Below, piece after piece: positions 5,555-63,687 of a stretch of 64,000 nt of DNA. Position 1 is the first letter of the stretch. Every line of letters starts with the position of its first letter. The DNA comes from an uncultured Sphingomonas sp. (GTDB lineage Bacteria > Pseudomonadota > Alphaproteobacteria > Sphingomonadales > Sphingomonadaceae). The translations under genes and the position numbers were made by a program. The notes beneath the pieces are model-generated. The model was given only the letters and a program-made list of their open reading frames with translations. It made no database searches and was not told the DNA's origin. The stretch lies in assembly GCF_913775315.1 (NCBI RefSeq), contig NZ_CAJYIX010000002.1; one strand, given 5' to 3'.

Positions 5555-7063
5555 TTGGTCGCGATCGTATCGACGGTAGCGTATCTGGGGCTGGAGGCCC
5601 GCGGGGTCGAGGTGCAGTGCAACCTCGTCGCGGGCGTCCCCGCCTTCGTCATGGTGGGCCTTGCCGACAAGGCGGTGGGCGAAAGTCGGGAGCGGGTGCG
5701 GGGCGCGGTCGCCGCGATCGGCCTTGCGCTTCCCCCCAAGCGGATCACCGTCAACCTGTCGCCCGCCGACCTGCCCAAGGAAGGCTCTCACTACGACCTG
5801 CCCGTCGCGCTGGCGCTGCTGGGCGCGATGGGCGTCGTCGATGTCGAGACGCTGGCCGATTACGTCGTCGTCGGCGAACTCGGCCTCGACGGGCGAATCG
5901 CCCCCTCGCCCGGCGTGCTGCTCGCGGCGATGCACGCCAGCGCCATCGGCAAAGGCCTGATCTGTCCGGCCGCACAGGGGCCTGAAGCGGCATGGGCGGG
6001 CGGGATCGAGGTGATTGCCGCCGACGACCTCATCGGCCTCATCAACCATCTGAAGGGCTCCGCGCTCCTCGCCACACCCGCGCCGGGTGAGGTCGAGGAG
6101 AGCGTGCATGGCCCCGACCTTCGCCAGGTGAAGGGACAGGAAACCGCCAAGCGCGCGCTGGAGATCGCGGCGGCGGGCGGCCACAACCTCCTGTTCGTCG
6201 GGCCGCCGGGCGCGGGCAAGTCGCTGATGGCCGCCTGCCTGCCCGGCATCCTGCCACCATTGGGCGCGGCGGAGGCGCTTGAGGTGTCGATGGTGCAGTC
6301 GGTCGCGGGCACGCTGTCCGGCGGACGCCTGACGCGCACGCGGCCGTTCCGCTCGCCGCACCACTCCGCCTCGATGGCCGCGCTCACTGGCGGCGGGCTT
6401 CGCGTGAAGCCGGGCGAGGTCAGCCTCGCGCATCTGGGCGTCCTGTTCCTCGACGAACTACCCGAATTCCAGCGCGCGGTTCTCGATTCGCTGCGCCAGC
6501 CGCTGGAGAGCGGCGTGGTCAGCGTCGCACGTGCCAATGCGCACGTCACTTTCCCGGCGCGCGTCCAGCTGGTCGCCGCAATGAACCCTTGCCGCTGCGG
6601 GCACCTCGGCGATCCGGCGCTCGCCTGCGCCCGCGCGCCCAAGTGCGCGGCGGACTATCAGGCCAAGGTTTCGGGCCCGCTGCTCGACCGCATCGACCTG
6701 CATGTCGAAGTGTCGCCCGTGACCGCCGCCGACCTCGTCCTGCCTCCCCCTGCCGAGGGATCGGCGGAGGTCGCGGCGCGCGTCTCGGCGGCCCGCACAA
6801 TCCAGACCGACCGATACGACGGCCACCCCGCGCGCACCAATTCTGAGGCGGAGGGTGCGCTGCTCGACGCTCACTCGACGCCGGACGAGGCGGGGCGGGC
6901 GCTACTGGCTCAGGCGGCGGAAGCGACGCGGATGTCGGCGCGCGGCTATACCCGCGTGCTGCGCGTCGCGCGGACGATCGCCGATCTTGGCGGGGCGGAG
7001 CGGGTCGGGCGGCTGCACGTGGCCGAGGCGCTTTCCTATCGCCGCACGGCGCCGCGCGCCTGA
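5555..7063 (+). CDS. comM: YifB/ComM family Mg-chelatase-like AAA+ ATPase
   Basis: LPKEGSHYDLP, GPPGAGKS, FLDELPEF, SGPLLDRID. Confidence 0.93.
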   Translation: MVAIVSTVAYLGLEARGVEVQCNLVAGVPAFVMVGLADKAVGESRERVRGAVAAIGLALPPKRITVNLSPADLPKEGSHYDLPVALALLGAMGVVDVETLADYVVVGELGLDGRIAPSPGVLLAAMHASAIGKGLICPAAQGPEAAWAGGIEVIAADDLIGLINHLKGSALLATPAPGEVEESVHGPDLRQVKGQETAKRALEIAAAGGHNLLFVGPPGAGKSLMAACLPGILPPLGAAEALEVSMVQSVAGTLSGGRLTRTRPFRSPHHSASMAALTGGGLRVKPGEVSLAHLGVLFLDELPEFQRAVLDSLRQPLESGVVSVARANAHVTFPARVQLVAAMNPCRCGHLGDPALACARAPKCAADYQAKVSGPLLDRIDLHVEVSPVTAADLVLPPPAEGSAEVAARVSAARTIQTDRYDGHPARTNSEAEGALLDAHSTPDEAGRALLAQAAEATRMSARGYTRVLRVARTIADLGGAERVGRLHVAEALSYRRTAPRA

Positions 7064-41673: not shown

Positions 41674-42597
41674 ATGACGACCTATCTGCCCACGCTGAAG
41701 CAGCTCCAGTATCTGGTGGCGCTGAACGACGCGGGGCATTTCGGGCGGGCGGCCGATGCCTGCTACGTCACGCAATCGACGCTGTCGGCGGGCATCCGCG
41801 AGCTCGAGACGCTGATCGGCGTCACGCTGGTCGAGCGGACGCGGCGGGTCGTGCGCTTCACCCCGCTAGGCGAGCGGATCGCCGACAAGGCGCGCCGCGT
41901 GCTGCGCGAGGCGGACGAACTGGGCGAGATCGCGCGTGCGGCGGGCCGCCCGCTGACCGGCGAGATGCGGATGAGCGTCATCCCCACCATCGCGCCGTTC
42001 CTGCTGCCGCAGATCCTGCCGCAGCTGCGGCGCGAATATCCCGACCTCAAGCTCTTCCTGCGCGAGGAGCCGACGGGGCCGGCGTGCGAGGCGCTGCATT
42101 CGGGCCGAACCGACTGCGTCCTCCTCGCGCTTCCCTATGCCTGCGGCGAGGTGGAGGTCGAGCCGCTGTTCGCCGACCGGCTGTTCGTCGCTTTCCCCCA
42201 GGCCGATACGCTGCCCGGGTCCGGCCCGGTGATGGCCGACGATATCGACGAAACGCGGCTCTTGCTGCTTGAGGACGGTCATTGCCTGCGCGATCATGCA
42301 CTGGCGGTCTGCGCCACGTCGGAGTTGCGCGGGCAGGCGGCGATGCTGGGCACGTCGCTGCATACGATCGTGCAGATGGTCGAGAACGGCCTCGGCGTCA
42401 CGATGCTGCCCGAAATGGCGATCGGCGCGGGCATCCTGCGCGGCACGCATATCGACGCGCGGCCGATTGATGCCGAGCGGGCGGAGCGGCGCATCGCGCT
42501 CGTTTGGCGCAAGGCGAGCCCGCGCGAGCGCGACTTCCGGCTGCTCGCCGACGTGCTGCGCACCGCCGCCGCCAAGCGTACGGACCAAGGTCGGTAA
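41674..42597 (+). CDS. oxyR: Hydrogen peroxide-inducible genes activator (LysR family)
   Basis: LysR HTH; GHCLRDHALAVC with both redox cysteines. Confidence 0.85.
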   Translation: MTTYLPTLKQLQYLVALNDAGHFGRAADACYVTQSTLSAGIRELETLIGVTLVERTRRVVRFTPLGERIADKARRVLREADELGEIARAAGRPLTGEMRMSVIPTIAPFLLPQILPQLRREYPDLKLFLREEPTGPACEALHSGRTDCVLLALPYACGEVEVEPLFADRLFVAFPQADTLPGSGPVMADDIDETRLLLLEDGHCLRDHALAVCATSELRGQAAMLGTSLHTIVQMVENGLGVTMLPEMAIGAGILRGTHIDARPIDAERAERRIALVWRKASPRERDFRLLADVLRTAAAKRTDQGR

Positions 42598-55761: not shown

Positions 55762-56466
55762 ATGTGTAATCGCTATCGAATGACGGCAAAGCAGGCTGAA
55801 CTCGCGGCTCGATACGGCGTCGATGCGATCTATGCGGAAGACGCCACGTTCCCCCCGCCGGAGCTGTTCCCGGATCGCGAGGCCTGGGTGATTCGGCACG
55901 ACGATAATGGACGGCGGCTGGACACGATGTCGTGGGGCTTTCCGCGAAAGGTCCCGGGCAAACGGATCGACAAGGTCACGGGGAAGCCCGTGCTGCTCGA
56001 CACGAAGGTCACGAACGTGCGCAACTACACCTCGCCGTTCTGGAAGTCGGCGTTGGCCAATCCCGAGCGGCGTTGCCTGGTCCCGTTCACAAGCTTCAGC
56101 GAATATGGGCCGGGCCCGACGGGGAAACGCCCTCTGTTCTGGTTCGACGTCCCCAGCCGACCCATTGTCAGCTTTGCGGGGGTTTGGCGTCCAACCGAAG
56201 CCGGCGCCGTCTTTGCGTTCCTGACGACCGAACCGAACCCGCTCGTTGCCCCGGTTCACCCCAAAGCGATGCCGGTGCTGCTTGACGAAGAAGACGAGGA
56301 GCGATGGCTCACCTGCTCGTTCGATGACGCCATTGCCTTGGCGAAGCCGTTCCCATCGCAGCTCATGTCAGTGAAGCAGGCCGACGATACACGTACCGAA
56401 AAGGGCAGGGCCGAGAAGGAAGCCGACGAAGAGAAGCGTACCAAGCAGCCAAGCCTCGATCTCTAG
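55762..56466 (+). CDS. SOS response-associated peptidase (SRAP/YedK/HMCES)
   Basis: MCNRY N-terminal Cys2, RRCLVP...FSEY, FAFLTTEPN, VHPKAMPV. Confidence 0.92.
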   Translation: MCNRYRMTAKQAELAARYGVDAIYAEDATFPPPELFPDREAWVIRHDDNGRRLDTMSWGFPRKVPGKRIDKVTGKPVLLDTKVTNVRNYTSPFWKSALANPERRCLVPFTSFSEYGPGPTGKRPLFWFDVPSRPIVSFAGVWRPTEAGAVFAFLTTEPNPLVAPVHPKAMPVLLDEEDEERWLTCSFDDAIALAKPFPSQLMSVKQADDTRTEKGRAEKEADEEKRTKQPSLDL

Positions 56467-56925: not shown

Positions 56926-57093
56926 ATGAGCGACAACGAACAAAATAGCACGTCTCTCACCATCGCGATCCAGCTTCATCTCAGGGAAGCAGCACGGCTC
57001 GCGAAGCTCGATCCCTCTGACAAGCGGATCAAAGAAATCATGTCCAAAGTCGGAGATCTGGCGATAGCTCGGATGAATCTGAAGGTCCCTTGA
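56926..57093 (+). CDS. 55-aa hypothetical protein (not in ORF track)
   Basis: MSDNEQNSTSLTIAIQLHLREAARLAKLDPSDKRIKEIMSKVGDLAIARMNLKVP. Confidence 0.45.
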   Translation: MSDNEQNSTSLTIAIQLHLREAARLAKLDPSDKRIKEIMSKVGDLAIARMNLKVP

Positions 57094-57413
57094 GTCGGAT
57101 ACGCTGCAACTGGTCGATCGCTATTCAGAACGAAAGAAAGCCGGGGTGCCGATCGATGCCGCGACGGACCTGTTCGCAATCGCGACCGCTGCACAATCTG
57201 ACCCACTTGCGGTCGTTCAGCGGCATCTTTGCCCTTCCCGGAAGCGGACGCTTGTTCATCTCGGCAGGTACGAACCGGGCGCGCGGTTGGTGGGTCCGCA
57301 CCGGATGGCCGCTCATTCCCCCGCAGACGATCTGACACAGAATTCTGACACGCCGAACCTCGCAGAAAACGCCCGGTAGCGCGGCGGTGTCACAACCGGA
57401 CGGTTCTGACACC

Positions 57414-57824
57414 TCAGGCGTTCGGTAAGGCCGCTGGTCCCAATGCCTCAATGATCCGGCATTCAGCGACTGTGCCGCCGTCGCAGGAGTCGATCACCGC
57501 CTTCAGTTCGCGGCGAAGGGCGATCAGATCGGCGAGCTTGCGATCCACCTCGCGCAGATGCTCGTTGGCGATACGGTCGATGCCGGCACAGTCGCACGTC
57601 CGATCGTCGGACAGACCCAGCAGAGCGCGTACCTGATCGAGCGAGAAGCCGAGGTCGCGCGCGCGTCGGATAAAGGACAGACGGCCCAACTCGGCCGCGC
57701 CATAGGTGCGGTAGTTGCCCGTGCTGCGGGATGGCTTCGGCAACAAGCCGATGCGCTCGTAATAGCGAACCGTTTCGACCTTGGTGTTGGTCGCCTTGCC
57801 CAGATCGCCGATCGTCAGCGCCAT
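57414..57824 (-). CDS. MerR family metal sensor, CadR/PbrR/ZntR type
   Basis: TIGDLGK...VETVRYYE HTH; Cys77/79, Cys114, Cys122. Confidence 0.92.
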   Translation of the reverse strand: MALTIGDLGKATNTKVETVRYYERIGLLPKPSRSTGNYRTYGAAELGRLSFIRRARDLGFSLDQVRALLGLSDDRTCDCAGIDRIANEHLREVDRKLADLIALRRELKAVIDSCDGGTVAECRIIEALGPAALPNA

Positions 57825-57828
57825 CACC

Positions 57829-57859
57829 TTGACCCTGTAGCTGCTACAGACACTAGATG
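57829..57859 (+). promoter_or_regulatory. MerR-type promoter/operator 1 (drives CDF gene)
   Basis: TTGACC-CTGTAG CTG CTACAG ACAC-TAGATG: 19-bp spacer containing a dyad. Confidence 0.88.
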
Positions 57860-57891
57860 GGGTGTCGCGCTCGGCTTCAAGAGGTGACGAC

Positions 57892-58623
57892 ATGGCAGGA
57901 GGATGCTGCGGCGGCTGTGCCGCTCCAACTGACAGGGACGACGACCGCGCATGGCGGCGCGTGCTGTGGATCGCGCTTGCCATCAACGCCGGCATGTTCG
58001 GCGTCGAGGTCGTCGCCGGCGTGGCCGCGCATTCCGCCTCGCTCAAGGCGGACGCGCTCGACTTTCTCGGTGATGCCGCGAACTACGCAATCAGCCTCGG
58101 CGTTGCGGGGATGGCGCTGCACTGGCGAGCGCGCGCCGCGCTCGCGAAGGGCGTCTCCCTGCTCCTGCTCGGCCTGTGGGTGCTGGGCTATACCGTCTGG
58201 GTGGCGGCGTCGGGCACGCTGCCGGGCGCGGAGACGATGGGGGTTGTGGGCGTGGCGGCGCTGATCGCCAACATGGTTTGCGCCGCGCTGCTCTGGCGGC
58301 ATCGAGGCGGCGACGCCAACCGGCAGTCGGTCTGGATATGCTCGCGCAACGACGCGATCGGCAACGTCGCCGTCGTCGCCGCGGCGTTCGGCGTATTCGG
58401 CACGGGCACCGGCTGGCCGGATATCGCGGTCGCCGCGATCCTCGCAGGCCTCGGCGTCTCCGGGGGCTGGCAGATCATCCGAAAGGCGCGTGTCGAGCTG
58501 GCTCAATCCCCGCCGAACCGGAAGCGGACGCCGCCGTTGATGGTGCGGCCGTCCAGCGGACCCCAGGCATCGACCGTCCACGCCCCGTCCGGCGCGCGCC
58601 GGGGCAGCAGCAGCGGATCGTAG
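57892..58623 (+). CDS. Cation diffusion facilitator-like efflux protein (short), N-terminal CCxxC
   Basis: MAGGCCGGC; SLKADALDFLGDAANY; WICSRNDAIGN; C-terminal ~40 aa run antisense into the TBDR gene. Confidence 0.88.
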   Translation: MAGGCCGGCAAPTDRDDDRAWRRVLWIALAINAGMFGVEVVAGVAAHSASLKADALDFLGDAANYAISLGVAGMALHWRARAALAKGVSLLLLGLWVLGYTVWVAASGTLPGAETMGVVGVAALIANMVCAALLWRHRGGDANRQSVWICSRNDAIGNVAVVAAAFGVFGTGTGWPDIAVAAILAGLGVSGGWQIIRKARVELAQSPPNRKRTPPLMVRPSSGPQASTVHAPSGARRGSSSGS

Positions 58624-60497
58624 CGGGTCTGGCGGAAGTTCAGCAGGTTCTCGGCGTTAAGGAACAGGCTGACCTTGCCCAGCTTCAGCTCGCCCATCGC
58701 GCCCAGCTCGACATAGGGACGGCTTCGGCTGCGATAGGGGTCGTCCTCAAGGCTCTGGCGGCCGGTATAATAGGCCTCCAGCCCGATCCGGCCGCGCTCG
58801 TGCTTCTCCCACACCGCTGTCAGCCCGGCGGTATTGCGCGGAGTGAGGGGAACGGCTCGCCGGCCGATGCCGTCCGGGTTCGGTTCGCGCGCGTCGGTGC
58901 GGACATAGCTTCCGGTGAAGGTGATGGCGTTTAGACGGCAGCGCAGCAGCAGCTCGGCCCCGCGCGAGCGCGTCACGCCATCGGCGTTGACCAGTTCGGC
59001 GCGGGTGGCGCTCACATCGCGGAGCTGGACGGCATGGTCGATGTTCGACCCGAACAGCGTCAGGCTCGCCTCGATCGGCCCGTGCGCATAACCGAAGTCG
59101 ATCGAGGCGGTGTCGGCCGTTTCGGCGCGCAAGCCCCGTAGCGGCTCGATCCGCGACAACCCTGCCGCCTCCACTTCCTCGATGAACGGGGTCGGCGCAT
59201 AGAAGCCGCGACCCAGCGACGCGCGCACGGTGAAAGGGCCGGGCCTGAACAGCGCCGACACGCGCGGACTGACGCGCGTACCGTATTCGCTATGGTCGTC
59301 GAGGCGCGCGCTGCCCGCAAGCGTCAGGTCCGCCGACACCTTCTGCTCGGCCTGCACGAACAGCGCGGGCACTCGATAGGTGTAGTCGAAAGCCGGGAAG
59401 GTCCGCGAGCGATAGCTGTCCACCTGGTAGGCGGCACCGGCGAGCCAGGTCGTGTCGCCGGTGCCGCCGCCCAGCGATGCCTCGGTCAGGACGGTGTTGT
59501 GGCGGTCATTCTCGATCACGTCGCCGAAGGTGTGCCGATGGGCCTGCGTTACGCCCGACGCGCGCAGATAGAGCGTACCGACGCCCTCGATCGGCGCCTG
59601 GGCGTTGAGGCCGGCGTCAAATCGCCGGCTGCGCTGATCCTGGGCGAAGGTCGAACCGTCCGGCACGACGCGGCCGGGCAGTGTGCCGCCGCGGCGCTGC
59701 TCGGCGAGCGCCCCGACCGTCAGATAGGCTTTCGCGCCGCCCGCACCGTCCCAGAACAGCCGCGGTCGGAACGTCCAGCGATCATAGCCGGGAATGTTCG
59801 CCCAACCGTCGCCGTCGATATCCTGGGCGGACTGCCGGTTGAACCCGCCGGTCAGCGAGTAGCCGATCGCCTCTGTCAGCGGACCGGAATTGTAGCCGGT
59901 CACGTCCTGCCCGCCCCGGCTGGTCGCGTTCACCAGCAACTCACCCAATTGTGCCGGCGAAGGTCGGCGCGACACGAGATTGATGACGCCGCCCAGCGCC
60001 GATGGGCCGTAGAGCGCGGATGCCGCACCCTTGATGATCTCGACCTGTCCAAGGTCGGTAGGCGGTATTTGTAGAAGGCCGATCGATGGCGTCTGCCCGC
60101 CGTAGAGCGGCAATTCATCGGCGAGGATTTGCGTGTAGCGACCTTTCAGGCCCTGCACCCGGACGTTCGCCGCCCCCAGCGCCGGCGACGTAACCTGGAC
60201 GCGCAGACCGGGCGTCTCGTTCACCAGCATGGAGATGTTACCGGGCTGCATGAGGATTTTCTCCTCGACCTCTTCCCGGTTCAACACCTCGACGCGGATC
60301 GGCTCGTCCTGCACCCGGCGACCGGTGCGGGTAGCCTGGACCACGATGTCCTCGCCCTCATCAGCTTCCTCGGTGGACGTCGGCGGCACAGCTACGGTTG
60401 GTCGATCCTGTGCCGCCGCAGCGTTCGCTGTCAGGCATAGGACCGCAAACACGATGGGCGACGCTATCAAAATCCTGTCGCCTGCTCTGTACGGCAA
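58503..60497 (-). CDS. TonB-dependent outer-membrane receptor
   Basis: Signal peptide, IVVQATRT TonB box, VEIIKGAASALYGPSALGGVINLVS plug, NAENLLN, terminal RFRF. Confidence 0.93.
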   Translation of the reverse strand: MPYRAGDRILIASPIVFAVLCLTANAAAAQDRPTVAVPPTSTEEADEGEDIVVQATRTGRRVQDEPIRVEVLNREEVEEKILMQPGNISMLVNETPGLRVQVTSPALGAANVRVQGLKGRYTQILADELPLYGGQTPSIGLLQIPPTDLGQVEIIKGAASALYGPSALGGVINLVSRRPSPAQLGELLVNATSRGGQDVTGYNSGPLTEAIGYSLTGGFNRQSAQDIDGDGWANIPGYDRWTFRPRLFWDGAGGAKAYLTVGALAEQRRGGTLPGRVVPDGSTFAQDQRSRRFDAGLNAQAPIEGVGTLYLRASGVTQAHRHTFGDVIENDRHNTVLTEASLGGGTGDTTWLAGAAYQVDSYRSRTFPAFDYTYRVPALFVQAEQKVSADLTLAGSARLDDHSEYGTRVSPRVSALFRPGPFTVRASLGRGFYAPTPFIEEVEAAGLSRIEPLRGLRAETADTASIDFGYAHGPIEASLTLFGSNIDHAVQLRDVSATRAELVNADGVTRSRGAELLLRCRLNAITFTGSYVRTDAREPNPDGIGRRAVPLTPRNTAGLTAVWEKHERGRIGLEAYYTGRQSLEDDPYRSRSRPYVELGAMGELKLGKVSLFLNAENLLNFRQTRYDPLLLPRRAPDGAWTVDAWGPLDGRTINGGVRFRFGGD

Positions 60498-60549
60498 AAC
60501 GCTACCCCTGCATGGGCGTCGCGATCATCGGGACGCTTGTGAGGGACGG

Positions 60550-60580
60550 CCCATAAGGGCTGTAGCCGCTACAGGGTCAA
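60550..60580 (-). promoter_or_regulatory. MerR-type promoter/operator 2 (drives TBDR gene)
   Basis: Minus strand TTGACC-CTGTAG CGG CTACAG CCCT-TATGGG; 20 of first 21 nt identical to operator 1. Confidence 0.85.
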
Positions 60581-60635
60581 CACTGTATTGGTCAGGACCG
60601 TTGTGCGCGGTCCCTGGTCGATCTACGACACCGCC

Positions 60636-60980
60636 ATGTCGCTCCGGGCCTTCCCGCTTTTCCGGCTCGTCCGCACCGCCACGATCGTCGTCCTGGCGGT
60701 GATGATGCTCGTGCGGCTTGGCCCGCTCTGCGAGACGATGGCGATGGCCGCGACGCCGATCGCGTCCGCGGCGATGGATTGCGCCAACACCCCAGGCCAC
60801 GTTCCGATCAAGAAAATCCCGCCCTCGGCCTGCGCCACGCCGTGCGCGGCGATGTCCGGCGAGACGGTTGCGCACGTCGAACCGATGCTGTTCGTGCCGC
60901 TGTCGCCTTGGGCGGTCGCCCATACCGGGCTGCTCGGACTTACCAGCGCACCGGCAACGCCCCCTCCGCAGACCGCGTGA
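60636..60980 (+). CDS. Cys-containing, Pro-tailed small protein (DUF2946/CutF-like)
   Basis: N-terminal hydrophobic helix, CATPC, C-terminal SAPATPPPQTA. Confidence 0.6.
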   Translation: MSLRAFPLFRLVRTATIVVLAVMMLVRLGPLCETMAMAATPIASAAMDCANTPGHVPIKKIPPSACATPCAAMSGETVAHVEPMLFVPLSPWAVAHTGLLGLTSAPATPPPQTA

Positions 60981-61020
60981 CGTCGAACCTGACCTCACAC
61001 GAATCTACACGGAGAATACC

Positions 61021-61203
61021 ATGACCAAGTTCAAGCTCATCAGCGCCGCTTTCGCCCTCACGCTCTCGACGGGCGCCTTCGCCGCGGTCGCGAATTGCTG
61101 CGCCGATATGGCGTGCTGCAAGGACGGTGCTGACTGCTGCGATCATGGCGACGAGGCGAAGGGCGGCGATCACGCCGGCCACGCCATGCCGAACATGAAG
61201 TAA
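61021..61203 (+). CDS. 60-aa secreted Cys/His/Met-rich peptide
   Basis: Signal peptide ending AFA; CC-X4-CC-X5-CC then HGD...HAGHAM; GGAG RBS. Confidence 0.8.
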   Translation: MTKFKLISAAFALTLSTGAFAAVANCCADMACCKDGADCCDHGDEAKGGDHAGHAMPNMK

Positions 61204-61212
61204 GACGAAGGG

Positions 61213-61241
61213 ACGGGGGGCGGGCGACCGCCCCCCGTTTT
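61213..61241 (+). terminator. Rho-independent terminator
   Basis: ACGGGGGGCGG-GCGA-CCGCCCCCCGT-TTT. Confidence 0.85.
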
Positions 61242-61286
61242 CATGGCGCGCCATATCGAGCGTGAAGCCACCACTAGACTACACTT

Positions 61287-61310
61287 ATATATCCACTATG
61301 CTAGATATAT
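61287..61310. promoter_or_regulatory. Putative ArsR operator
   Basis: ATATATC-N10-GATATAT overlapping the arsR start codon. Confidence 0.6.
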
Positions 61311-61641
61311 GGAAAATGAGTCAGCAATCGCTGCGCTAGGCGCGCTCGCCCAAGGGACGCGGCTCGACGTGTTCCGCCTGTTGGTGCGTCACGAACCGGA
61401 CGGCATGGCGGCGGGCAATATCGCGCGGGCGCTCGACGTGCCGCAGAACACCATGTCGGCGCATCTCGGCATCCTCGCGCGCGCCGGCCTGGTCCGCTCT
61501 GAACGGCATAGCCGCTCGATCATCTACCGTGCCGATCTGGACGGCCTGCGCGCGCTGACGCTGTTCCTCGTCAAGGATTGCTGCGCCGGCAATGCGGAGC
61601 TGTGCGCGCCGCTCGTCGCCGAACTCGCCCCCTGCTGCTGA
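61309..61641 (+). CDS. arsR: ArsR family As(III)-responsive repressor
   Basis: [21 protein letters not shown]; C-terminal DCC...C...CC. Confidence 0.92.
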
Positions 61642-61652
61642 AAGGACGCCCC

Positions 61653-62081
61653 GTGGCCGTCGATATCGTCATCTATCACAACCCCGAGTGCGGCACGTCG
61701 CGCAACGCGCTGGTGATGATCCGCAACGCCGGCATCGAGCCGCATGTCGTCGAGTATCTGAAAACTCCGCCCTCGCGCGCGCTGCTAGTCGAGTTGATCG
61801 ATCGCGCCGGCATGACACCCCGCGAGCTGCTACGCGAGAAGGGGACGCCCTATGCGGAGTTGGGCCTGGGCGACACGGCGCTGTTCGACGACGTGTTGGT
61901 GGATGCGATGATGGCGCATCCGATCCTCATCAACCGGCCGCTGGTCGTCTCGCCGCTCGGCGTGAAGTTGTGCCGGCCGTCCGAAGCCGTCCTCGATCTG
62001 CTGCCGAGCGGCCAGCTCGCCGCGTTCGCCAAGGAAGACGGCGAACAGGTGGTGGACGCTTCGGGCCAGCGCGTCGCCTGA
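61653..62081 (+). CDS. arsC: Arsenate reductase (glutaredoxin type)
   Basis: [24 protein letters not shown]. Confidence 0.95.
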
Positions 62082-63367
62082 TGCTCCTTGCCCTCCTGAT
62101 CTTCGTCGCGACGATCACGCTCGTCATCTGGCAACCGAAGGGCCTCGGCATCGGGTGGAGCGCGATGGGCGGGGCGATCGTGGCGCTGCTCGCGGGTGTC
62201 GTCACCCTGTCCGACGTGCCGGTAGTATGGGGCATCGTCTGGAACGCGACAGCCGCGTTCGTCGCGATCATCGTCATCAGCCTGCTGCTCGATGAGGCCG
62301 GGTTCTTCGAATGGGCGGCACTCCATGTCGCGCGCTGGGGCAGGGGGCATGGTCGCCGGCTATTCGTTCTGATCGTGCTGCTCGGCGCGGCGGTGTCCGC
62401 GCTGTTCGCCAACGACGGCGCGGCACTGATCCTGACGCCGATCGTCATCGCCATGCTGCGCGCGCTGGGGTTCAAGGACAAGGCGACGCTGGCCTTCGTC
62501 ATGGCGGCCGGGTTCATCGCCGACACCGCCAGCCTGCCGCTGGTCGTGTCGAACCTCGTCAACATCGTGTCGGCCGACTTCTTCAAGATCGGGTTCGGCG
62601 AATATGCGGCCGTGATGGTGCCGGTCGATCTAATGTCGATCGCGGCTACGCTGGGCGCGCTGCTCATATTCTTCCGACGTGATATCCCGCGAGATTACGA
62701 TGTGACCGCGCTGCGTGCGCCCGGTGCCGCTATCCGTGACGCCGCGACCTTCCGCGCCGGATGGATCGTCCTTGCCCTGCTGCTCGCCGGCTTCTTCCTG
62801 CTCGAACCGCTCGGCGTGCCGGTCAGCGCCGTCGCCGCTGCCGGCGCGATCCTGCTGCTGGTGATCGCTGGGCGGGGCCATGTCATCCAGACAGGCAAGG
62901 TGCTGCGCGGCGCGCCGTGGCAGGTCGTCATATTTTCGCTCGGCATGTACCTGGTCGTTTATGGCCTGCGGAACGCCGGCCTGACCGACCATCTGGCGGC
63001 GCTGCTCGACCGCACCGCACAAGGCGGCGTGTGGAGCGCAGCGCTAGGAACGGGCGTGATCGCGGCCGTCCTGTCGTCGGTAATGAACAACATGCCAACC
63101 GTGCTGGTAGGCGCGCTGTCGATCGACGCCACGCATGCGACAGGGGCGGTCAAGGAAGCGATGATCTACGCCAACGTCATCGGCTGCGATCTCGGCCCCA
63201 AGCTGACGCCGATCGGCTCACTCGCCACGCTGCTGTGGCTGCATGTCCTGGGGCAGAAGGGCGTTCGGATCGGGTGGGGCTATTATTTCCGGGTCGGGGT
63301 CACACTGACCGTGCCGGTTCTGCTCATCACGCTTGCGGCGCTGGCGTCGAGGATCACGATCGGATGA
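62081..63367 (+). CDS. arsB: Arsenite efflux pump ArsB
   Basis: [40 protein letters not shown]. Confidence 0.96.
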
Positions 63368-63687
63368 CGGCATTGATCTACATTGGCGCGGCGCTCGCGG
63401 AAATTGCTGGATGCTTTGCCTTCTGGGCCTGGCTCTGTATGGGAAAGTCGCCCGTGTGGCTGGCGCCCGGCATCGCTTCGCTGATCCTGTTCGCCTGGCT
63501 CCTGACTCGCGTAGACAGCGACGCGGCGGGCCGTGCCTATGCCGCCTATGGCGGCATCTACATCTGCGCCTCGCTACTCTGGCTATGGGGCGTCGAGGGC
63601 GTTCGGCCCGATCGATGGGACGTGGGCGGTGCGGTCCTGTGTCTTGTCGGAACCTGCGTCATCCTTCTTGGCCCGCGGGGGGCATGA
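63364..63687 (+). CDS. YnfA (UPF0060) SMR-type membrane protein
   Basis: [27 protein letters not shown]. Confidence 0.92.

Follow-up and report, generated by a model that had tools for sequence, protein, structure and literature searches.

The metal sensors CadR and PbrR691 of the MerR family combine a winged helix with a coiled coil, possess three cysteines as metal ligands and are encoded divergently from their first structural gene. Their operators are CTNTAG-N3-CTANAG dyads placed in a 19-bp spacer behind a TTGAC -35 box, and activation from spacers of this length has been documented for PbrR at PpbrA and for MerR (PMC3431237). The same protein build and the same operator are found at positions 57414 to 60580 of a 64,000-nucleotide stretch of DNA from an uncultured Sphingomonas sp. 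(contig NZ_CAJYIX010000002.1; hereafter the window), where a merR-family regulator gene is accompanied by the genes for a short exporter of the cation diffusion facilitator (CDF) family and a TonB-dependent receptor (TBDR). The window regulator reaches only about 100 bits against CadR and PbrR, however, and has no His-rich C-terminal tail. CadR and PbrR are known to act on genes for P-type ATPases (cadA, pbrA) and CDFs, whereas an outer-membrane TBDR is a core target in the window system.

CdfX (Rmet_2299) of Cupriavidus metallidurans lacks a cytoplasmic domain, is induced by Zn and Cd via the MerR-type regulator ZntR and exports Zn (PMC11580412). By its published description, CdfX is a truncated CDF with an adjoining gene for a MerR-type regulator, and the window CDF has the same build and is preceded by a MerR-type promoter. 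The two differ in that CdfX is located in a cadR-cadA island without a TBDR and that the window CDF possesses a CxxxD motif in transmembrane helix 5 (TM5) and a Cys-rich N-terminus. MerT and PbrT are driven by the same class of promoter as the window TBDR and move the sensed toxic metal inward; unlike the outer-membrane TonB-dependent barrels, they are small inner-membrane proteins.

TBDRs are textbook starvation genes, which are shut off by metals via Fur, Zur and similar repressors. The metal transporters ZnuD, OprC/NosA and CntO, which share the plug-and-barrel architecture of the window TBDR, are induced by starvation and repressed by their metal. ZnuD and CntO are among the structural or sequence matches of the window TBDR, but at 15-18% identity the resemblance to metal TBDRs is of a generic kind and does not exceed that to Cir, BtuB or PfeA. 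Among Alphaproteobacteria, upregulation of TBDRs upon metal exposure has been reported for the UzcRS regulon of Caulobacter crescentus (PMC8963506), and nickel-induced TBDRs were found in Sphingobium sp. ba1 (PMC5557971). Either a two-component system or as yet unknown regulators control these receptors, none of which has been reported with a MerR-type promoter. The Sphingobium genes were considered as orthologues of the window TBDR and rejected, since they are located in PepSY/PiuB operons and are part of another module. In the full-text literature, outside subscription journals and regulon databases (RegPrecise), no TBDR activated by MerR, CadR or PbrR was found, and a comparative study of MerR-family regulons from 2006 lists none (PMC1526738). 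A toxic-metal activator that drives a TonB-dependent outer-membrane transporter in a conserved and repeatedly re-formed arrangement appears to be undescribed, although all of its parts belong to known families. MerR-type resistance regulons have so far consisted of inner-membrane pumps, uptake proteins and enzymes; if induction of the TBDR is confirmed, an outer-membrane, energy-coupled component would join them.

Two matching operators face each other across the CDF and TBDR genes

The regulator gene (57414-57824, minus strand), which was identified by its Pfam domains, encodes a protein of 136 amino acids. The CDF gene (57892-58623, plus strand; an open reading frame (ORF) of 243 codons recognized by the Pfam family Cation_efflux and by homologue alignment) and the TBDR gene (58503-60497, minus strand; 664 amino acids, TTG start codon, Pfam domains Plug and TonB_dep_Rec_b-barrel) lie between two converging MerR-type promoters. 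The first of these (57829-57859, plus strand) precedes the CDF gene and consists of the -35 box TTGACC (57829-57834), the dyad CTGTAGCTGCTACAG (57835-57849) within a 19-nt spacer (57835-57853) and the -10 box TAGATG (57854-57859); the same site is present 5' of the CDF gene in related loci. The second promoter (60550-60580, minus strand) precedes the TBDR gene and is composed of TTGACC (60580-60575), the dyad CTGTAGCGGCTACAG (60574-60560), a 19-nt spacer (60574-60556) and the -10 box TATGGG (60555-60550). Four bases separate the dyad from the -10-like hexamer at both sites, and both have the dyad inside a -35/-10 spacer of the 19-20 bp that define operators of the MerR branch.

The exact dyad CTGTAGCNGCTACAG occurs twice in the 64-kb window. 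When up to two mismatches were allowed, three matches were obtained, compared to 0.06 expected, and three or more were seen in none of 100 shuffled sequences. The third match at position 41695 is an imperfect dyad, which is absent from the matches of a position matrix derived from related sites, and was taken as a chance occurrence; the matrix recognized only the two promoters described above, with 44.0 and 44.9 bits. A strict consensus scan of the region 57000-61300 revealed no ordinary sigma-70 promoter with a 16-18-bp spacer, and the three terminator-like matches in the same region correspond to the chance level. Transcription of the TBDR gene is predicted to start at around position 60543, which would result in a leader of about 46 nt. 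Over its last 121 nt (58503-58623), the CDF reading frame overlaps the convergently oriented TBDR gene at its 3' end. As the genes overlap and no terminator lies between them, their MerR-activated transcripts should collide or yield mutual antisense RNA.

A sequence-only reading of the window had proposed that two promoters with 19-bp spacers face each other across the CDF and TBDR genes and that the ATG of merR lies 4 bp from the first -35 box. Both promoters were located exactly where that reading had placed them, and the coordinates of the start codon (57824-57822, minus strand) agree with the proposed distance. The further suggestion that merR is leaderless is unnecessary, as a weak candidate promoter (57852-57880, minus strand), composed of TTGAAG (57880-57875), a 17-nt spacer and TCTAGT (57857-57852), overlaps the -10 box of the CDF promoter, and an AGGG contributed by the operator arm is located around 10 nt upstream of the ATG on the merR strand. 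This candidate falls below the strict consensus scan and would produce a leader of about 20 nt. The merR start codon lies 2-6 nt from the -35 box in around 25 loci, in which a TATATA-like -10 box is available on the merR strand, and an overlapping divergent promoter arrangement is classical for mer and cad divergons and has been reported for cadR/cadA (PMC11580412). It is therefore probable that merR is transcribed from a divergent promoter overlapping that of the CDF gene.

The regulator exceeds the Pfam cut-offs for MerR (50.9 bits), MerR_1 (61.6 bits) and MerR-DNA-bind (74.2 bits) and contains both the winged helix-turn-helix and the dimerisation helix. Among solved structures, CadR of P. 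putida (6jgv, 103 bits) and PbrR691 (5gpe, 98 bits) are its best relatives. A phmmer alignment to these structures places Cys80, Cys115 and Cys124 at C77, C112 and C119 of CadR, so that the three-Cys pattern noticed in the sequence-only reading coincides with the metal ligands of CadR and PbrR691. Among the NCBIfam equivalogs, CadR-PbrR (TIGR02047) gives 110.8 bits at a cut-off of 151.45, CueR 120.3 bits at a cut-off of 147.4 and MerR 112.6 bits at a cut-off of 150.85. As judged from its sequence, the regulator is CadR/PbrR-like in its working and stands outside every certified named equivalog. By its similarity to CadR/PbrR, it would most likely be induced by Cd(II), Pb(II) or Zn(II).

Conservation of the operator-TBDR wiring

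The comparison comprised 80 genomic loci with TBDR homologues of 60-99% identity, which originate from Sphingomonadales, Caulobacterales, Xanthomonadales and a few other groups; the window locus is 99% identical to those of Sphingomonas yantingensis DSM 27244 and Sphingomonas sp. BK345. A relaxed pattern applied to 1.02 Mb of these loci yielded 62 sites, all of which are placed as promoter of a TBDR gene, a CDF gene or a CDF-DUF3703-TBDR operon. Using a position matrix trained on the same sites, the promoter was detected upstream of the TBDR gene or its operon in 43 of the 44 loci with a linked merR; seven of the 80 loci carry the promoter in a flank devoid of merR, and both elements are missing from another 29 (Fisher p=4e-14). 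Training of the matrix on these sites has no bearing on the association with merR. The 39 TBDR-proximal sites share a mean pairwise identity of 72.5% over the 31-nt site compared to 27.6% and 29.5% in the 40-nt flanks, and their consensus is gCTTGACCCTGTAGc.GCTACAG.Ct.TAtgg. This clear phylogenetic footprint extends over -35 box, dyad and spacing and takes in the TA of the -10 box.

The linkage to merR is scattered over the TBDR tree, requires at least 11 parsimony changes, and different architectures interleave among close relatives. At least four gene arrangements occur, and the TBDR gene is located behind a MerR-type promoter in each of them: promoter, TBDR and merR follow each other on one strand; an inverted promoter-CDF cassette is inserted between TBDR and merR, as in the window; merR is divergent from a promoter-CDF-DUF3703-TBDR unit; or merR is divergent from promoter-TBDR. 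An intact CDF gene is present in only about a third of the linked loci, and decay remnants are found elsewhere, for instance in L004 and L005. No neighbours beyond merR and the short CDF gene are conserved across the 80 loci. On this comparison, the conserved core consists of promoter, TBDR and merR, and the CDF gene is an optional insert.

The sequence-only reading had named the absence of the operator upstream of TBDR homologues as an outcome that would overturn it. The operator is present in 50 of the 80 loci and tracks the linkage to merR, and the conservation of the site together with the 43 merR-linked loci supports the TBDR gene as a maintained target of a CadR/PbrR-type promoter. The proposed pairing of TBDR and CDF held for the matching promoters in the window, but the CDF is not an obligate partner, as most MerR-linked loci lack it. 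The promoter architecture, the class of the regulator and the conserved wiring of promoter and TBDR are established by the sequence and these comparisons, and the regulatory assignment of the TBDR is as strong as comparison alone permits; metal induction of the TBDR is what we infer from it. A toxic-metal activator apparently hard-wired to a TBDR has been kept or re-created many times in Sphingomonadales, Caulobacterales and Xanthomonadales. With one regulator, two promoters and two transporters, the locus offers a clean handle on the outer-membrane response to Cd/Zn/Pb stress, and the promoter pair could be used as a compact native biosensor in these bacteria.

In the locus of the very close relative Sphingomonas sp. 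BK345 (L002), the TBDR operator (5918-5938) differs at two positions (TTGACCTTGTAGTGGCTACAG), of which one lies in the left arm of the dyad, while the CDF operator is identical to that of the window. These changes may reflect a relaxed or altered control of the TBDR gene.

The distribution of the operator outside the TBDR loci was analysed by scanning metagenomes for the exact pattern TTGACCCTGTAG-N3-CTACAG, which yielded 124 sites in 120 contigs, 117 of them with a usable downstream ORF (L092-L211). The downstream genes encode short CDFs (42 sites), P-type ATPases with an HMA domain (21), MerT-like membrane proteins with a CCxxP motif (15), DUF3703 proteins (4), long CDFs (3), TBDRs (3) and merR-like regulators (2), and 27 were left unclassified. 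By its sequence, the operator can be regarded as the generic CadR/PbrR-class type (CTNTAG-N3-CTANAG). Since it precedes MerT-like as well as ATPase genes, it serves several types of metal-resistance genes in environmental Proteobacteria, and the small share of TBDRs among the downstream genes indicates that they are a lineage-specific recruit to this promoter class. DUF3703 proteins (Pfam E=9e-40) recur in operons of this promoter; their genes are located between the CDF and TBDR genes in L039, L048, L058, L060 and L063 and were also found in the metagenome loci L152, L154, L179 and L205. The protein may correspond to Rmet_2300, a small protein encoded between cadR and cdfX in C. metallidurans.

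Role of the TBDR under metal stress

The short CDF matches the Pfam family Cation_efflux (PF01545) with 46.9 bits (cut-off 26.6) over residues 25-203 and profile positions 1-197 of 198, which comprise the six-helix membrane domain; the NCBIfam model TIGR01297 is reached with 65.3 bits, below its cut-off of 82.35. Homologue alignment revealed a conserved core of around 209 amino acids, which ends near position 58518, and the last 35 codons are a non-conserved read-on. A C-terminal cytoplasmic domain is missing. The protein contains the motifs GGCCGGC in its Cys-rich N-terminus, DFLGD in TM2 and CSRND in TM5. It has the build described for CdfX, that is, no cytoplasmic domain and a MerR-type promoter upstream of the gene (PMC11580412). 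Among plasmids, 194 records contain homologues annotated as 'cation transporter'. The usual setting is a merR-CDF divergon like that of pYGP1, and the short CDF is a common mobile gene.

The TBDR possesses a signal peptide and matches the Pfam domains Plug and TonB_dep_Rec_b-barrel with 69.2 and 98.1 bits, respectively. An AlphaFold model built with 92 sequences from two phyla has a pLDDT of 84.7, a pTM of 0.84 and 22 barrel strands; a first model based on 13 close sequences was discarded because of its pLDDT of 54. The best Foldseek matches are Cir, PfeA, BtuB and PirA (16-19% identity), with TM-scores of 0.72-0.76 for Cir, PfeA and BtuB. Homologue alignments place the TonB box EDIVVQATR at residues 49-57 (60327-60353, minus strand). 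Among 13 homologues with 68-88% identity, its residues I51, Q54, A55, T56 and R57 do not vary, and in the 92-sequence alignment R57 is invariant and V53 and T56 are nearly so. None of the named NCBIfam TBDR subfamilies (BtuB, CirA, FepA, siderophore, haem, PqqU and others) reaches its cut-off, the best scores being 95.8 bits for the siderophore subfamily (cut-off 223.5) and 93.1 bits for BtuB (cut-off 599.7). A FecA-type signalling extension was not detected, as no STN domain is recognized by Pfam and the signal peptide and the TonB box lie only around 20 residues apart. At E<=1e-20, the family comprises 5111 homologues. MerR-linked and unlinked TBDRs cannot be told apart by any residue, which argues for one function irrespective of the linkage. 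In the strand map of the model, His320, His333 and His402 are placed close to where strands 7, 8 and 11 end on the extracellular side; their conservation amounts to 92-100% within the alpha/gamma clade and does not extend to the Bacteroidota relatives.

Loci without the MerR promoter show features of their own. In 10 of the 29 unlinked loci (among them L024, L036, L037, L041, L042, L050, L051, L071 and L075), a small His/Cys-rich ORF of around 105 codons is located directly upstream of the TBDR gene on the same strand. In its product, a signal anchor (LWCGLH) is combined with a stretch that is rich in His and ends in HHHCP, and the C-terminus reads APPLQPPAA (HHHCP...PPxQPP); the only family match is a faint one of one such protein to Pfam DUF2946 (E=0.16), and none was obtained with NCBIfam. 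This ORF hints at a metal-related substrate of the TBDR. A possible homology with the 114-amino-acid product of the window ORF at 60636-60980 was rejected, as hhalign gave a probability of 0.2 and the resemblance is only general. No shared upstream motif was seen by eye in the loci led by the small ORF, and neither a cobalamin nor another riboswitch was detected upstream of the TBDR gene in ten unlinked loci, where only tRNAs were found. In several loci without the MerR promoter, tRNA genes are located immediately beside the TBDR gene (L046, 8168-8241; L052, 7949-8021; L009, upstream), which is consistent with a tRNA-adjacent TBDR unit at island integration sites.

Taken together, we propose that the locus represents a MerR regulon of the CadR/PbrR type, which has two structural promoters and in which the TBDR acts as an importer under metal stress, and assign this proposal a probability of roughly 0.6. 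The regulator dimer would sit on the CTGTAG-N3-CTACAG dyad inside the over-long 19-bp spacer. Binding of a thiophilic divalent metal via Cys80, Cys115 and Cys124 would then untwist the spacer, allowing RNA polymerase to use the -35 and -10 boxes, as is established for MerR and PbrR. The first promoter would provide the CdfX-like CDF, which would pump the metal from the cytoplasm to the periplasm, and the second one the co-induced outer-membrane transporter; in relatives without a CDF, merR would be co-transcribed downstream of the TBDR gene. Under toxic-metal stress, the TBDR would take up a substrate related to metals into the periplasm; the most plausible candidate is an essential metal or a metal chelate, which would compensate for displacement by Cd, Zn or Pb. 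An import function is favoured because the TBDR keeps the hallmarks of TonB-energised importers and occurs without the exporter in most genomes. That the imported substrate is a beneficial one is suggested tentatively, at somewhat less than even odds, and there is a smaller yet appreciable chance that the TBDR has a role outside importing, toxic-metal handling and export.

Several observations weigh against this proposal. The TBDR alignment contains no Cys/His/Met cluster that both phyla have conserved, so that a bare soft-metal site is not evident, and neither a periplasmic binding protein nor an inner-membrane importer is conserved beside the TBDR gene in the 80 loci. The sole recurrent transport partner is an exporter, the CDF, which forms one operon with the TBDR in about five loci. 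The only member of the TBDR family in a plasmid collection, a Hymenobacter copy of 35% identity, is likewise found next to a CDF gene: on the plasmid of Hymenobacter sp. BRD67 (L082, 4262-7594), a small Cys-rich ORF with the end WQPPQGA, the TBDR gene and a short CDF gene of 33% identity to that of the window follow each other head to tail. A coupling of TBDR and CDF across phyla as a rule was rejected, as five other Bacteroidota contexts are devoid of a CDF gene, and the Hymenobacter pair was considered an isolated parallel. As CueR outscores CadR-PbrR and every NCBIfam equivalog stays below its cut-off, the inducing metal is uncertain. The operator is not specific to the window regulator, with TBDRs at only three of the 117 metagenome sites, and cross-talk with other CadR-like regulators is possible. 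Public RNA runs that contain the locus delivered flat, undirected contigs only, and these runs are DNA-like or contaminated.

Among the alternatives, one of the two that survive best holds that the TBDR handles the toxic metal itself, either by moving it inward according to the logic of MerT and PbrT or by serving as a surface sink. MerT-like genes at 15 of the 117 metagenome operators indicate that uptake proteins are normal in this regulon class, and PbrT is part of a PbrR-controlled locus (PMC1526738). His320, His333 and His402 near the extracellular strand ends and the HHHCP protein encoded upstream of unlinked homologues fit such a function as well. However, the three histidines are not kept in the Bacteroidota relatives, the 80 loci contain no linked gene for a detoxifying enzyme of the cytoplasm or for a sequestering protein, and importing Cd or Pb while the CDF exports it would have no obvious benefit. 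We consider this alternative unlikely, although a serious competitor.

Of equal weight is the possibility that the sensor responds to another metal, such as Cu(I), Hg(II) or a further soft metal, and that the module is involved in the homeostasis of that metal. The order of the NCBIfam scores, with CueR ahead of MerR and CadR-PbrR and all of them below their cut-offs, would be compatible with this possibility, as would an additional Cys78 near Cys80 and the cysteine in the TM5 transport motif of the CDF. The spacing of the regulator cysteines (35 and 9 residues) is that of both Tn501 MerR and PbrR691. On the other hand, CueR lacks the cysteine of the N-terminal domain that is found in the window regulator, and over its full length this regulator matches CadR and PbrR691 best among solved structures. 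Moreover, the CTNTAG-N3-CTANAG operator precedes CadA-like ATPases and CDFs elsewhere, and no merA or copper genes are linked in the window and the homologous loci. A sensor for another metal is thus unlikely, yet worth keeping in view.

The sequence-only reading had suggested that the TBDR may export metal or a metal-ligand complex or import a protective ligand. In a broad form of this suggestion, the MerR-activated TBDR would cooperate with the domain-less CDF, physically or functionally, in clearing toxic metal from the envelope, the TBDR acting either as a TonB-gated exit or as importer of a protective ligand that acts in the periplasm. If true, this would be a new two-membrane route of metal resistance, in which the TonB system replaces an RND/TolC pump; even in this broad form the suggestion is improbable. 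In its stricter version, the CDF delivers the metal to the periplasm and Cd, Zn, Pb or a metal-ligand complex leaves through the gated TBDR. Both genes are co-regulated from matching promoters, they form single CDF-DUF3703-TBDR operons in L039, L048, L058 and L063, the TBDR of the Hymenobacter plasmid, in another phylum, is directly followed by a homologous short CDF, and a conserved inner-membrane importer partner is missing. The TonB-dependent transporter Oar of Myxococcus xanthus, which has no relation to metals, is needed for the outward transport of the protein PopC (PMC6434023) and, as an analogy, would be the only precedent for export. However, TonB box, plug and barrel of the TBDR are of the ordinary importer type, around two thirds of the loci with a MerR-type promoter lack an intact CDF, and the 29 of 80 homologues without MerR and CDF share all conserved residues. 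The short CDF occurs in 194 plasmid records and the TBDR never travels along, and under external metal excess a gated channel would be expected to admit metal. Exit through the TBDR is therefore the least supported part of the sequence-only reading and quite improbable.

Very improbable is the explanation that the site upstream of the TBDR gene serves for repression only or is an inert duplicate of the CDF promoter and that the TBDR is expressed from elsewhere without metal induction. The -10 box TATGGG of this site is poor, and the BK345 operator has diverged at the TBDR only. However, MerR-type promoters typically have weak -10 boxes (PMC3431237), and 39 loci with randomised flanks keep the -35 box, the dyad, the 19-bp spacing and the TA of the -10 box. 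The strict scan yielded no alternative sigma-70 promoter in the intergenic region, and the position of merR downstream in the TBDR transcription unit of many loci is sensible only if the promoter fires.

Genes flanking the module

To the left of merR, the stretch at 54-57 kb contains no clear long genes and may consist of mobile-element debris; an ORF at 55762-56466, whose product starts with MCNRYRM, seems to resemble SOS-response-associated peptidases. On the other side, two small Cys/His-rich ORFs (60636-60980 and 61021-61203) are divergent from the TBDR promoter. The first encodes a membrane-anchored protein of 114 amino acids with the pattern CE...C...CATPC and the C-terminus TPPPQTA, and the second a secreted protein of 60 amino acids that is rich in CC and His; neither has a family match in Pfam or NCBIfam. 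The pair recurs on Sphingomonas plasmids at 77-90% DNA identity as well as in L007 and L064, and on an S. insulae plasmid it adjoins a CDF/CzcA cluster. In the window, the pair is followed by an arsenic-resistance cluster (61243-63687), which comes directly after the module. A family search identified a regulator of the ArsR/SmtB family with a C-terminal Cys pair in this cluster, and the remaining genes, as read from their sequence, encode an ArsC-like reductase, a membrane protein resembling arsenite pumps and a small membrane protein. The right end of the window thus looks like a metal-resistance island.

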